Below, one piece after another: positions 6,262-16,005 of a DNA stretch of 46,221 nt. Position 1 is the stretch's first letter, and each line of letters opens with the position of its first letter. This DNA comes from a virus. The notes beneath the pieces are model-generated. The model was given only the letters and a program-made list of their open reading frames with translations, was not told the origin of the DNA and searched no databases. Made by a program: the position numbers and the translations under genes. The DNA lies in the UHGV virus genome UHGV-0126501. One strand, written 5' to 3'.

Positions 6262-6540
6262 TTAGGGAAACTGGCGTCTTGCGTGGATCACGTTTACTAC
6301 TTCAACGCTTGATGTTGTTACGCGGTATAGAATTATATAGTTAGGGTGGGCTACAATCTCACGCAAGCCAGGTACTCTGTCGCTTGGTGGGTATAAATAC
6401 GGATGTTCGGATAACGGCAGCACACAACCCCTTAATCGCTGCCATAAGCGTTCAGCCGCATCTATGTCGAAACGAGCAATATAACTAGTTATATCATCTA
6501 GGTCGGTATCTGCGTTTTCAAGCCATAACACGGGTAACAT
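6262..6540 (-). CDS. Type II toxin, RelE/ParE superfamily
   Basis: About 92 aa from Met at 6540; C-terminal ...IVAHPNYIILYRVTTSSVEVVNVIHARRQFP matches the RelE/ParE C-terminal pattern; start overlaps the upstream antitoxin stop. Confidence 0.7.
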   Translation of the reverse strand: MLPVLWLENADTDLDDITSYIARFDIDAAERLWQRLRGCVLPLSEHPYLYPPSDRVPGLREIVAHPNYIILYRVTTSSVEVVNVIHARRQFP

Positions 6541-6541
6541 T

Positions 6542-6733
6542 TTACTGCTTGCTCCGTTCCTTGCGCATTTTAGCAAAGCGTTCTGCCATTCTGCGCTCAA
6601 CTTCGTCATGGGGAATTGCTGGGCGCGGATCTGCAAGGCTCGTTGCTACTTTCGCACGCAGCCATTCGTTGTAACTGTTTTCTTGTTCAATGGTTTCAAA
6701 TTCAGAAACCATTGGTGAAAGGGCTCTATTCAT
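6542..6733 (-). CDS. Cognate antitoxin (ParD/RelB-like small protein)
   Basis: 63-aa ORF with strong SD (GGAGG) before the ATG at 6733; immediately upstream of and overlapping the toxin. Confidence 0.6.
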   Translation of the reverse strand: MNRALSPMVSEFETIEQENSYNEWLRAKVATSLADPRPAIPHDEVERRMAERFAKMRKERSKQ

Positions 6734-6753
6734 GTTTCCTCCGGTTTTATAAC

Positions 6754-7125
6754 TCAGGCGCGGCGGCATTTTTGCGCCGCAATCCATCTCGCTATGAGAT
6801 CTTCCATTGATTCTTTTTTCTGCTTTAACTCGCTGATTATCTGGCGTTGCTCATCCTCAGGGAAGGCTGAAAAAATCTGCAATAATTCCAGTTGATTAGA
6901 CGTTAACCCTGCATGTGGTGGAGAAACTTCCGGTTGTTCTGCGTATTCCGCATCCAGATACCCTTCCGGCATCCCGTATGTTTGCTCTATTCTTCTGGCA
7001 GCCTTTTCTCCAAACGAGGCTCTCCCACTCATTAGTTGAGATAGGTAGCTCTTCTCTTTGGGTGGCAGAGTTTTATCTTTAAACCACTCCTTGAGACGTA
7101 AACGGCGAATTTCTTTTTTTTGCAT
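6754..7125 (-). CDS. CI-like prophage repressor (HTH, no S24 peptidase domain; RacR-like)
   Basis: Divergent from the cro-like gene across an operator-rich spacer; HTH-like N-terminal segment (LSQLMSGRASFGEKAARRIEQTYGMPEGYL); ATG at 7125 sits just after a candidate -10, suggesting a leaderless mRNA. Confidence 0.65.
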   Translation of the reverse strand: MQKKEIRRLRLKEWFKDKTLPPKEKSYLSQLMSGRASFGEKAARRIEQTYGMPEGYLDAEYAEQPEVSPPHAGLTSNQLELLQIFSAFPEDEQRQIISELKQKKESMEDLIARWIAAQKCRRA

Positions 7126-7525: not shown

Positions 7526-7947
7526 AAATCAAGCATGAACACATCCGCATGGCGATGAATGCCTGGGCGCATCCGGACGGCGAGAAAGTACCGGCTGCGA
7601 AAATTACCAAAGCGTATTTCGAACTGGGTATGACGTTCCCGGAATTGTACGACGACAGCCATCCGGAAGCCCTGGGCCGTAACACCCAGAAAATTTTCCG
7701 CTGGGTGGAGAAAGACACTCCTGATGCGGTTAAAAAAATTCAGGCGTTGTTACCAGCGATCGAAAAAGCGATGCCGCCTCCGCTGGTGGCCCGAATGCGC
7801 AGCCACAGTTCCGCTTATTTTCGGGAGTTGGTAGAGACGAAGGAACGGCTGGTGAAAGATATTGATGATTTCGTTGCATCAGCGATCGTTCTGTTCGATC
7901 AGATGAATCGTGGTGGCCCGGCAGGAAACACTCTGGCTGTGCATTAA
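7522..7947 (+). CDS. YdaT-like / CII-like regulatory protein
   Basis: 141-aa ORF overlapping the cro-like stop (ATGA); position equivalent to cII / Rac ydaT. Confidence 0.55.
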   Translation: MKIKHEHIRMAMNAWAHPDGEKVPAAKITKAYFELGMTFPELYDDSHPEALGRNTQKIFRWVEKDTPDAVKKIQALLPAIEKAMPPPLVARMRSHSSAYFRELVETKERLVKDIDDFVASAIVLFDQMNRGGPAGNTLAVH

Positions 7948-7960
7948 TTGGGTAATAAAT

Positions 7961-8470
7961 ATGAGTAATGACAAAAAATTGACACTGAGCGTTTACGAAA
8001 ACAGTCCGCACATCTGGCGTGGCGGTTTATCTGATGTGGAGCTGGCAGAGTGGTTGATACATAAAGCTAATGCGCTGCTCTGGCGTTTGTCAGCCAGAGA
8101 ACAGCGCAAGGAAACCAGAATAAAGCTGGCTGATGCAGAAGCGTGTGCCGGGCTTATTGAGGATTATACAAATCTTGGTATTTCTTCAGCAGAGAGTGAT
8201 CCCATTCAGCCTCTGAGCAGGGAGTCAATCCAGCACGCTGGTTGTATGGCACATCTTGTAACTGCTCGTCAACATGAGGTGGGTATTGGATCACTTCCGG
8301 TGGGATATTCGCTGATTCCAGAGCTGGTTGAAGCAAGAAAATCAGTTCAGAAAAAGAGAGATGACGCACTTCAATTATTGAGAGAGCACTATGGCGCGAT
8401 ACCAGAATGCGAACAGCGTCGATACCCTGAAGGTTATGAATGGATGCAGTCTCTTTTTGAAGTTCGCTAA
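7961..8470 (+). CDS. Hypothetical early protein
   Basis: ATG at 7961 just after the previous stop; same strand as the early right operon. Confidence 0.45.
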   Translation: MSNDKKLTLSVYENSPHIWRGGLSDVELAEWLIHKANALLWRLSAREQRKETRIKLADAEACAGLIEDYTNLGISSAESDPIQPLSRESIQHAGCMAHLVTARQHEVGIGSLPVGYSLIPELVEARKSVQKKRDDALQLLREHYGAIPECEQRRYPEGYEWMQSLFEVR

Positions 8471-8687
8471 TCAATATGTCGAGACGAAGGTATGTTTCGG
8501 CGCGCAGCCAGGCTCTGTAATCCGGGAGCATTTCGGGGCTGTTACACCAGCGGTTTGTTGCTGCAACATTTAATACATGAGCCTGATAAAGGCTTTTCAA
8601 AAAATACATGTCGAACCTCCTCTGGTTCTGTTGATTGGGAACCACAGATTATATCCGGAGGAAGGTTCGGCACCAGATGAGGTAGCC

Positions 8688-9797
8688 ATGCGTGATTACG
8701 CAAAAGTTTCTCCGCGATTCTGGCTGGGAGAAACGGGGAGAGAACTTAGAAAGGCGGGTGCAGAAGCGCAAGTTGTTGCTTTTTACCTGATGACATCCCC
8801 TCACGCAAATATGCTGGGTTTGTATTACCTGCCAGTTTTATACCTTGCTCATGAAACCGGGCTTGGTCTGGAAGGGGCTTCAAAGGGGCTTAAAAGGGCT
8901 GTTGAAGCTGGTTTTTGTAGCTATGACCATGATGCCGAGATGGTCTGGGTCCATGAAATGGCAGCCTGGCAGGTTGGGGAAACGTTGAAGCCTGGCGATA
9001 ACCGTTGTGCAGGTGTCAGGAATGAGTATGCATCATTACCTGAAAACGCTTTTCTGTCAGCGTTTTACGACAGATATAAAACGGATTTCCATCTGGATGT
9101 GAGGCGGAATAATAGCCGAAATTCGGTAAGGGGCTTCGAAGGGGCTTTTAAGGGGCTTCGAAGCCAAGAACAGGAGCAGGAGAAAGAACAGGAACAGGAC
9201 AAAAACACTATGGTTCATGGCGAAAAAAACACCATGAACCAGGCAGGGGATGTTCAGACCGTAAATTCTGGTCAGCCAGCAGGCACGACACCGGAAGCCG
9301 ATTCGGCGTATGCGCTGAAAGCCGATTCGGGCGCTGTGCAGCAGGCGATGACCGCAGGGTCGGAGCAATCACACCAACTGCAGCAGCCTGAAGCCGATTC
9401 CGCCATTCAGCGGGAAGCCGATCGGGTAGTCCCGGAAAACACCGGGCGGCCTGTGGGACGAGTGGATTATCCGGATGCGTTCGAACAGGTCTGGCGGGAA
9501 TACCCGTTGCGTGCCGGGGCAAACCCGAAGAAATCCGCATTCAGTGCCTGGAAGGCCAGATTGCGCGAGGGGGTGCCACCAGAGGCCATGCTGGATGGTG
9601 TGATGCGTTACGCGAGATACCTAGCGGCGACCGGGAAAGCGGGAACGGAATTTGTTCAGCGAGCGACGACGTTTTTTGGACCGGACCGGAATTTTGAAAA
9701 CCCCTGGTTGCTCCCGGTAAGCGGCACGAACAACCAGCGTTGTGTGAATCATATTTCTGAACCGGACACCGAAATTCCGCCTGGGTTCAGGGGGTGA
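8688..9797 (+). CDS. Putative replication initiation protein (O-like / DUF1376-type N-terminus, DnaT-like C-terminus)
   Basis: ATG at 8688 with GAGGT SD; position of a replication gene in a lambdoid early right operon; contains two clusters of 11-bp-spaced direct repeats and a QE-rich linker. Confidence 0.55.
   Translation: MRDYAKVSPRFWLGETGRELRKAGAEAQVVAFYLMTSPHANMLGLYYLPVLYLAHETGLGLEGASKGLKRAVEAGFCSYDHDAEMVWVHEMAAWQVGETLKPGDNRCAGVRNEYASLPENAFLSAFYDRYKTDFHLDVRRNNSRNSVRGFEGAFKGLRSQEQEQEKEQEQDKNTMVHGEKNTMNQAGDVQTVNSGQPAGTTPEADSAYALKADSGAVQQAMTAGSEQSHQLQQPEADSAIQREADRVVPENTGRPVGRVDYPDAFEQVWREYPLRAGANPKKSAFSAWKARLREGVPPEAMLDGVMRYARYLAATGKAGTEFVQRATTFFGPDRNFENPWLLPVSGTNNQRCVNHISEPDTEIPPGFRG
8870..8900. 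repeat. Iteron-like direct repeats, cluster 1 (AAGGGGCTT x3 at 11-bp spacing)
   Basis: AAGGGGCTT at 8872 and 8883, AAGGGCT at 8894. Confidence 0.5.
9128..9165. repeat. Iteron-like direct repeats, cluster 2 (AAGGGGCTT x3 at 11-bp spacing), followed by an A-rich stretch; candidate ori
   Basis: AAGGGGCTT at 9128, 9139 and 9150, inside the replication gene as for lambda ori within O. Confidence 0.5.
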
Positions 9798-9837
9798 GTG
9801 TTTATTTCAGGTCATGAGATAATTTTCAGGAGGAGTT

Positions 9838-10260
9838 GTGGCAAAAGTATTTACACAGGAAGAGCGAGAAAAAATTAAAGGGCAGATTGTTGATCTCGTA
9901 CGCCAGAGCGGGCGAGAGACGTTACGACAACTGGAAGCTAAAACTGGGGCAACAAGATATCTGATGAGCGTTCTGGCCAGAGAACTGGTAGCCAGTGGCG
10001 ATGTATACAACTCCGGCTACGGGTTATTCCCGTCTGAACAGGCCCGTAAGGACTGGCAAAACGCCCGCAAAAAACTCTCAAGGGCAAAGGTGAAGAAAAC
10101 GGCTGTGGTTGATCCGGACCTTATCAGGTCATTACCTGACGGAGAAATACGCCGCTACGACAGGCGTCAGAACATAATCTGTCGCGAGTGCCGGAAGAGT
10201 GAGGTTATGCAGCGAGTGCTGGCGTTCTATCGGGGTAATTTTCAGGAGGTGATGGCGTGA
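9838..10260 (+). CDS. Hypothetical protein
   Basis: GTG start with AGGAGG SD; 140 aa. Confidence 0.45.
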   Translation: MAKVFTQEEREKIKGQIVDLVRQSGRETLRQLEAKTGATRYLMSVLARELVASGDVYNSGYGLFPSEQARKDWQNARKKLSRAKVKKTAVVDPDLIRSLPDGEIRRYDRRQNIICRECRKSEVMQRVLAFYRGNFQEVMA

Positions 10261-15659: not shown

Positions 15660-16005
15660 TATGTATGAGGTTTTAGACCGCTGGGGGGCATGGGCTGCAG
15701 CAGAAAATAGTGGTGTCGATTGGCAGTCGATAGCGGCAGGCTTCAAGGGGCTTCTACCACACGGTAAAAAGTCACGCCTCCAGTGTGATGATGATGAAGG
15801 TATTATGATAGACGGTTGTGTGGCCCGCCTGCGGAAATATAAACCAGAAGAATATGAGCTGATCATTGCCCACTTTGTTATCGGGATTTCACTGAGGACG
15901 ATTGCAAAAAGAAGAAAATGTTGTGATGGAACTATTCGCAAAGAACTTCAAACAGCTATGGGGTTCATATCAGGTGTTTTGTCGCTGTTAAGCGAAGCCC
16001 AATAG
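15649..16005 (+). CDS. Late-gene antiterminator Q-like protein (short Q family)
   Basis: Position after rusA as in DLP12/lambdoid phages; ATG at 15649 with AGAGG SD, overlapping the rusA stop; Cys-containing C-terminal half. Confidence 0.55.
   Translation: MGRDMYEVLDRWGAWAAAENSGVDWQSIAAGFKGLLPHGKKSRLQCDDDEGIMIDGCVARLRKYKPEEYELIIAHFVIGISLRTIAKRRKCCDGTIRKELQTAMGFISGVLSLLSEAQ

Follow-up and report, generated by a model that had tools for sequence, protein, structure and literature searches.

Does the replication gene of a lambdoid prophage carry, within its own coding sequence, the origin at which its product acts? The question is raised by the UHGV virus genome UHGV-0126501, an Escherichia coli lambdoid prophage whose whole analysed stretch of 46,221 nucleotides is here called the window. 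Its replication initiator gene contains two clusters of short repeats, which an earlier reading of the sequence alone (the sequence-only reading) had proposed as a candidate origin by analogy with phage lambda. The analysis below leads to the view that the two clusters are probably an iteron origin to which the product of this same gene binds, comparable to lambda O at ori-lambda and to SPP1 G38P at oriL. The selection of the repeats at the DNA level is observed; the binding, the firing and the site of opening are what we infer from it and from the architecture of the locus. The features on which the argument is built are the following.

8688..9797, + strand: replication initiator gene from the list of open reading frames (ORFs), 369 amino acids (aa) plus stop, with a predicted N-terminal winged helix, an acidic linker and a C-terminal module
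8872..8902, + strand: putative iteron cluster 1, AAGGGGCTT at 8872-8880 and 8883-8891 and a degenerate AAGGGCTGT at 8894-8902, 11-bp spacing
9128..9165, + strand: putative iteron cluster 2, AAGGGGCTT at 9128-9136, 9139-9147 and 9150-9158, 11-bp spacing

Two phased repeat clusters inside the gene

Exact matches to AAGGGGCTT were found on the + strand at 8872, 8883, 9128, 9139 and 9150, with one further match at 15745. Only 0.44 matches are expected in the window, and none of 100 dinucleotide shuffles reached the six that were found. The lone copy at 15745-15753 lies far from the replication gene and may be a chance match, given this expected number per window. Tandem Repeats Finder (TRF) reported a period of 11 both at 8872-8898 (2.5 copies) and at 9128-9163 (3.3 copies), so that the 11-bp phasing that had been noticed in both clusters is confirmed, as is their position inside the initiator ORF. 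The earlier description of two clusters with three repeats each needs one amendment: five copies are exact, but the third copy of cluster 1 is degenerate. It matches the word at 6/9 positions when placed at 8894 (AAGGGCTGT) and at 7/9 when placed at 8893 (AAAGGGCTG). The codons of this degenerate copy (CAA AGG GCC) are still constrained across the family.

A single repeat unit forms a 4-3-4 pseudo-palindrome (GAAG-GGG-CTTC), and the units, of 9-11 bp, are contiguous with a period of 11. Cluster 1 lies upstream of cluster 2 at a distance of 256 bp. Cluster 2 runs into a perfect 12-bp palindrome (GGCTTCGAAGCC, 9154-9165), which may represent a partial fourth unit.

Selection acts on the DNA rather than on the peptide

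Repeats inside a gene may simply be the by-product of a repeated peptide motif, in this case EGASKGL, and EGASKGL-like peptides are indeed present at both sites in some homologues. This was also the outcome that the sequence-only reading had named as its own refutation. Since 11 is not a multiple of 3, however, the repeat copies are read in different frames: the exact copies of cluster 1 are read as EGA and KGL, while those of cluster 2 are read as RGF, EGA and KGL in three frames.

The constraint on the synonymous sites was followed through the family. Homologues were gathered (tblastn against phage records; IMG/VR; a GTDB set with one genome per species) with the search peptides MRDY... and TSPHANM.., which are both conserved and both located outside the repeats, so that the sampling of homologues is not circular. 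The hosts comprise Enterobacteria, Acinetobacter, Burkholderiales, Xanthomonadales, Legionellales, Acidobacteriota and a metagenome-assembled genome (MAG) of the Synergistota. More than 560 matches to the protein family were confirmed in IMG/VR. The family is also widespread among prophages, in many Proteobacteria and in other phyla.

When the codons of 66 main-clade genes, from hosts as far apart as Acinetobacter, Ralstonia and Acidobacteriota, were aligned, the codon choice within the repeats was seen to be nearly frozen. The counts in cluster 1 are GAA 58/59, GGG 58/59, GCT 55/61, AAG 56/57, GGG 53/59, CTT 56/64, CAA 28/29 and AGG 22/27; those in cluster 2 are GAA 46/46, GCC 46/47, CCT 46/51, AAG 53/53, CCC 47/51, CGA 30/30 and AGC 59/59. 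Of the 12 repeat codons, 11 have a codon entropy of 0-0.9 bit and one, L157, has 1.37, whereas the median is 1.83 bits for 54 other conserved positions with four- or six-fold degeneracy (Gly, Ala, Leu, Pro). The Mann-Whitney p value of 7e-8 for this difference is a generous one, since the homologues are phylogenetically related, but the difference is plain on mere inspection of the alignment. The Ser codon that serves as spacer between units is still variable in its codon choice. When the 8-mer AAGGGGCT was counted with at most one mismatch, a density of 28.3/kb was obtained in the two cluster zones versus 0.88/kb in the rest of the loci. Both clusters are present in 59 of the 69 loci.

The repeats are thus strongly selected at the DNA level, independently of the encoded peptide. 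That they constitute a DNA-level functional element can be read from the aligned genes with very high confidence.

The repeat word is kept in either orientation

Homologues differ in how cluster 2 is oriented. In 50/66 of them it is present as the reverse complement AAGCCCCTT and encodes EAPSKPL instead of EGASKGL, while the direct orientation is found in 12/66, including the window. On a neighbour-joining tree of the N-domains at least four orientation switches were counted, with the inverted state at the root. Such persistence of a DNA word in both orientations, with altered residues, is the hallmark of a site in double-stranded DNA. Between close relatives the copy number ranges from 2 to 3.

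With these flips the peptide explanation becomes hardly credible. The three reading frames, the frozen synonymous sites and the recoding of the inverted word to EAPSKPL all speak against it, as does the change of all copies together in a whole clade (see below), and the cluster 2 peptide is moreover predicted to be disordered. The repeats as a mere peptide repeat were therefore rejected.

The same flips bring up an explanation at the level of the mRNA, in which clusters 1 and 2 would pair over ~250 nt and control translation. The 50 homologues with an inverted cluster 2, complementary to cluster 1, would be suited to such pairing. Direct repeats are unable to pair, however, and these are found in the window and in at least four independent lineages with word and phasing kept; homologues such as L164 possess cluster 2 only, in 5-7 tandem copies. 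An action through the mRNA is considered very improbable.

The repeat word follows the type of the N-domain

In a second clade the N-domain is 25-36% identical and contains the peptide ERVSKGF, and AAAGGGTT(T) takes the place that cluster 1 has in the main clade. The word AAAGGGTT is found again just before the acidic linker, in direct and/or inverted copies, and the identical G3-to-A and C7-to-T changes are present in every repeat copy of this clade. The word thus co-varies with the N-domain: the main clade has AAGGGGCTT, the ERVSKGF clade has AAAGGGTT in both clusters, and phage Tritos, which is treated further on, has GTCACG. The Klebsiella phages L001 and L007 share a host genus but differ in the repeat word, which in each phage is matched to its N-domain type; this speaks against binding by a host factor. 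The N-domain is also the only constant neighbour of the repeats. The downstream genes vary: some relatives have a DnaC-like ATPase or a primase-helicase there, and in others a loader gene is missing altogether.

These observations bear on the possibility that the repeats are sites for another protein, be it of the host, for partition (centromere-binding) or for packaging. In plasmid R1, parC consists of two clusters of 11-bp repeats that are bound by ParR, and the 11-bp phasing in two clusters in the window resembles such type II centromeres; ParB-like genes are located near the gene in L007 and L168. On the other hand, the repeats always occur with this N-domain while the neighbouring genes vary, and the repeat type follows the N-domain type within one host genus. 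The window has no adjacent ParM/ParR-like genes and no DnaA boxes nearby. The likeness to R1 parC is one of geometry only: a ParM/ParR partner is absent from the window, and the repeats co-vary with the N-domain of a replication protein. Another protein as the binder is judged improbable.

More distant members of the family keep solely the cluster that precedes the linker, and cluster 1 is missing in L162-L165. Among these, L164 (a MAG of Acetomicrobium hydrogeniformans, Synergistota) encodes a 27%-identical homologue without the first cluster and contains 5-7 AAGGGGCTT-like units at 11 bp (locus positions 1924-1995), followed by AAAGAATAAAGAATAAAGAAACAAGAA. A AAAGAATAAAG-type A-rich tract stands after these units, which is the clearest layout of iterons plus an A-rich region in the family. 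In three loci from Paraburkholderia / Robbsia (L154, L158 and L160, at ~1960-2010), AACCCTT repeats are followed by a (PE)n linker encoded by (CCAGAGCCTGAA)n instead of a (QE)n linker. This replacement indicates that the low-complexity linker is conserved as a feature and not as a sequence.

A predicted winged helix and its overlap with cluster 1

An iteron origin calls for an initiator that recognizes a specific sequence, and a predicted fold of this kind was found in the N-terminal part of the protein.

8688..9113, + strand: coding region of the N-terminal domain, aa 1-142, predicted winged helix-turn-helix
8865..8906, + strand: codons of the helix aa 60-73, the third ('recognition') helix, from the secondary structure of the model and the codon map; contains cluster 1

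An AlphaFold2 model of residues 1-160 was built with 66 aligned homologues (mean predicted local distance difference test score, pLDDT, 86; predicted template modelling score, pTM, 0.80). It displays a winged helix with a helix at 25-36, a strand at 45-47, helices at 50-57 and 60-73 and a beta hairpin at 77-88. The N-domain is accordingly predicted to adopt a winged-helix DNA-binding fold. A Foldseek search of the PDB returned weak winged-helix matches only (E about 0.1).

When the codon map is laid over the model, cluster 1 encodes aa 62-71 and falls inside the predicted recognition helix. Cluster 2 encodes aa 147-157, at the start of the acidic linker, where residues 143-160 are predicted to be disordered. 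The protein can tolerate recoding in such a disordered linker, which fits with cluster 2 being the one that flips.

A bolder proposal, to which we give less than an even chance, is that cluster 1 is coded in the very helix (aa 60-73) predicted to read it, that this self-overlap locks the specificity of the system, and that the same origin is also used by the Shiga toxin (Stx) phages of the 'Eru4' type. If site and reader coincide in cluster 1, a mutation of the binding site also mutates the recognition helix, and the G3-to-A and C7-to-T changes of the second clade do turn EGA..KGL into ERV..KGF. The 'Eru4' replication unit is defined by Stx1 phage 75/02, whose protein displays ~80% identity over the first 137 residues of the N-domain. 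In the published account its function was given as unknown, and the authors stated that nothing was known on the replication proteins of the Eru phages (PMC8951638).

N-domain, repeats and linker are exchanged as a cassette

9202, no strand: module junction, from which to the end of the gene ~94% DNA identity is found to phages with a different N-domain

The phages that share this ~94% identical C-terminal module (Tritos, Evi, vB_EcoS-689R5 and others) are unrelated to the window upstream of 9202. The N-domain of Tritos (L169) is of the 'replisome organiser' type (PF09681-type) and unlike that of the window. Tritos has neither the repeats of the window nor its QE tract. Instead, all nine GTCACG words of its 3.7-kb locus (9/9) fall in two clusters, at L169 1154-1217 (codons 43-64) and 1414-1460 (codons 130-144). 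The second cluster has a spacing of 10-11 bp and is followed by the acidic linker TDKDTDKD and then by the shared C-terminal module. Some homologues of the window's N-domain, in turn, carry the G38P-type C-terminal domain PF09524.

Judged from these alignments, the N-domain, the two phased clusters and the acidic linker are replaced together, as one cassette, in front of a C-terminal module that stays the same. A cassette that determines origin specificity is expected to behave in this way.

A junction this close to the repeats also suggests that they might be recombination 'linker' sequences, which promote the exchange of modules between mosaic phages; the junction is situated only ~45 bp past cluster 2. 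It lies beyond the acidic linker and not at the repeats, however, and cluster 1 is inside the domain. Both the repeats and the QE tract are absent from Tritos, and the 11-bp phasing and the orientation flips would be left unexplained. We regard this role as highly improbable.

The A-rich tract behind cluster 2

9163..9210, + strand: A-rich, purine-rich (GAACAG)n tract that encodes the acidic linker SQEQEQEKEQEQDKN; TRF period 6/18; candidate unwinding region
9211..9241, no strand: inverted repeat TGGTTCATGG / CCATGAACCA, perfect over 10 bp with an 11-nt A-rich loop; significance uncertain

Cluster 2 is followed by (GAACAG)n, which encodes SQEQEQEKEQEQDK. The A-rich tract that had been noticed after the second cluster proved to be an extreme of its kind: no other 40-mer of the 46-kb window has as much A (57.5%) or as many purines (87.5%) as 9166-9205. 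Its A+T content is moderate (55-62%). A thermodynamic unwinding element was looked for beside cluster 2, but the duplex there is not extreme in its instability. Upstream of the gene lies the least stable 40-mer of the surroundings, 8568-8608.

The inverted repeat at 9211-9241 was rejected as a conserved hairpin, as most near-identical relatives contain an uncompensated mismatch, and its function is doubtful. Many homologues have a different hairpin at the position just after the linker. Across the family, post-linker hairpins show a modest enrichment: their mean best score is 6.0, compared to 4.9 for shuffled sequences, and in 16% of cases it lies above the highest score of 30 shuffles. No DnaA boxes were found near the locus; the window as a whole has 3, with 4.4 expected.

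A putative origin bound by its own gene product

According to the proposed mechanism, the winged-helix N-domain would bind the AAGGGGCTT repeats, and the two clusters would form the core of the theta replication origin of the prophage. Protomers would occupy the contiguous 11-bp units head to tail, roughly on one face of the helix, at both clusters. The oligomer on cluster 2, possibly bridged to cluster 1 by DNA looping, would strain the supercoiled DNA next to cluster 2, and the DNA would most likely open in the A-rich, linker-coding tract at 9163-9210. The exchangeable C-terminal module with its DnaT-like tail may then recruit the host helicase.

Several points weigh against this proposal. 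The binding of the repeats and their activity as an origin are what we infer, and the p-values overstate the independence of homologues that are related to each other. By its duplex stability, 9166-9205 is only among the least stable 12-15% of 40-mers, and a classical unwinding element is not evident near the repeats. No extra A/T bias was found at the synonymous sites of the linker compared to the rest of the gene; the A-richness of the linker is therefore fully explained by its Gln/Glu peptide. Some relatives have the (PE)n linker in place of the A-rich tract. Among 72,556 plasmids, no minimal replicon with this gene alone was found. Plasmids with the gene as the sole replicon were searched for there, and the 10 matches are all prophage-bearing contigs or large replicons, including a 32-kb Klebsiella record that is a linear, prophage-containing fragment. 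Finally, this copy of the prophage might be defective, because the DnaC-like gene of close relatives is absent from it. The gene order of isolated phages such as Tritos is the same as in the window, which counts against a defective copy.

The absence of a convincing unwinding element next to the repeats would also suit a different explanation, in which the repeats are sites of the gene's own protein that serve regulation (as a roadblock, in autorepression or in copy control by iteron pairing) and the origin is located elsewhere. The distance of cluster 1 from cluster 2 and its absence from some distant homologues are compatible with such an accessory role. Yet in the region 8400-10000 no other repeat array or AT-rich feature stands out as an origin, and both the cassette behaviour and the parallels with lambda, SPP1 and Tritos favour an origin. 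In addition, regulation and initiation can coexist in iteron systems. A purely regulatory role is therefore considered unlikely. The iteron origin is still the preferred reading, and the candidate origin of the sequence-only reading is in this way supported by the DNA-level selection of the repeats, by the anatomy of the locus and by its modular structure.

The gene and its neighbourhood

The 369-aa protein matches PHROG 1701 ('DnaD-like helicase loader') with an E value of 5.6e-144. It also matches PHROG 3729 ('replication initiation protein') and other PHROG families of replication initiators, while the match to PHROG 6251 ('replisome organizer') is weak (E 3.6e-4). In Pfam, no family was matched at E <= 0.01; the window's N-domain matches neither the lambda O N-domain (Phage_rep_O) nor PF09681 (Phage_rep_org_N), and a precomputed Pfam hit to the N-domain is carried by none of the 120 listed homologues (0/120). 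Related genes have been named 'replication protein O', 'primosomal protein I' and, in RefSeq, 'DNA-binding protein'.

9723..9794, + strand: DnaT-like tail, the C-terminal 24 residues, from NCBIfam NF002770 and PDB chains; weak, local match

In the NCBIfam and PDB sequences, the only match of the whole protein is a weak one to this tail. The last 24 residues (…NHISEPDTEIPPGFRG) match the DnaT tail of NF002770 with an E value of 0.0019, far below the cutoff of that family, and the PDB sequences 6aep, 2ru8 and 9zbt at E 0.017-0.06. The tail may be a motif for the recruitment of the helicase or primosome. It is also present in Klebsiella homologues of which the remaining C-terminal sequence differs.

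Chromosomal prophages in 13 E. coli genomes, O157:H7 strains included, match the segment 8600-9300 with an identity of at least 99%. At least part of this segment is matched by 1636 of 5426 complete genomes, 469 of which cover at least 80%. In one close relative the prophage adjoins potC and is surrounded by integrase, excisionase, Q and lysis genes.

Upstream of the initiator gene lie a cI-like gene (- strand) and the Cro/YdaS-like and CII/YdaT-like genes (+ strand); ECs1072-family and DUF977 genes are further neighbours. Directly 3' of the replication gene lies a DUF977/LygF-like gene (9838-10260). In the O157:H7 relative L167 (5181-7148, compared with 9798-10260 of the window), a DnaC-like ATPase and a DUF1627 gene stand between these two, so that the window has lost or never had the helicase-loader gene.

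Two further observations concern the early region. The ORFs 7910-8470 (+) and 8157-8645 (-) are located on opposite strands and overlap by ~315 nt, each with a family match: PHROG 8304 (E 5.5e-120) for the former and NCBIfam ECs1072 (2.7e-30) for the latter. RefSeq annotates the one on the minus strand, and one of these two families probably rests on a shadow ORF. A RelE/ParE-RelB toxin-antitoxin pair (6262-6787, - strand), annotated as such in L167, has the cI-like repressor gene on one side and the leftward early genes on the other.

Comparison with known origins

Initiator-binding repeats inside the initiator gene are classical, and the kind of origin proposed here is thus already known. 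In lambda, the sites that the initiator binds are repeated within its gene O and make up the origin, with an A-rich tract after them (PMC7466680). The analogy with lambda, drawn from the outset, holds for the anatomy (repeats in the initiator gene, then an A-rich tract) and for the modularity, but not for the protein: the gene is not a homologue of lambda O, and its N-domain is without detectable homology to the lambda O N-domain. Like its counterpart in lambda and the Stx phages 933W and P27, the window's gene belongs to the rightward early operon, behind cro- and cII-like genes, and as in lambda, the N-part for origin specificity and the C-part for recruitment are swapped separately. The lambda iterons number four or more and are dyad-symmetric units of 19 bp, placed about two helical turns apart. 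The units of the window are contiguous at 11 bp and 9-11 bp in length, in contrast to these 19-bp dyad-symmetric iterons. They are distributed over two clusters 256 bp apart, of which one is embedded in the codons of a predicted recognition helix and the other is free in its orientation. Furthermore, one 9-bp word is conserved over very distant hosts in the window's family, and the window is devoid of a P-like or DnaC-like gene.

In SPP1, oriL is embedded in gene 38. G38P binds its AB boxes, which adjoin an unwinding element, and oriL was found to be sufficient for replication in vitro (PMC5737612). With G38P and Tritos the window shares the repeats inside the gene, the low-complexity or A-rich neighbour and the joined C-terminal recruitment domain. 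It differs in its N-domain, which is not PF09681, and in its repeat word, to which binding is here proposed from the sequence. A further comparison is that with the iteron plasmids whose initiators are winged-helix proteins (RepA/RepE/pi and the staphylococcal RepA_N), in which the iterons typically measure 17-22 bp and are located outside the rep gene, together with DnaA boxes. Those of the window measure 11 bp and lie inside the gene, and a DnaA box was not found nearby.

A description of this origin was searched for by its repeat words and as 11-bp phage iterons, and none was found in the searchable literature, which excludes most subscription-journal papers. As far as that literature shows, what is new is a putative origin for an initiator family that has neither a Pfam model nor a described origin.

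Significance

The locus offers a concrete and testable candidate origin, together with a putative initiator-binding word, for a widespread family of replication proteins that includes those of some Shiga-toxin phages. Since the replication capacity of Stx prophages affects the toxin output, a defined pair of origin and initiator would be useful. The origin may find application in the typing of replication modules, in phage-derived vectors and in interference by origin decoys.

The locus is also an unusually clean natural case of selection at the DNA level that overrides protein coding, as the word persists in both orientations and the peptide is recoded. If the tentative self-overlap of cluster 1 with its reading helix were true, it would explain why a 9-bp word persists in elements as far apart as those of enterobacteria, acidobacteria and Synergistota, and why cluster 2, which is not so constrained, is able to flip. 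It would also provide a one-step route by which the specificities of the protein and of its site change jointly.

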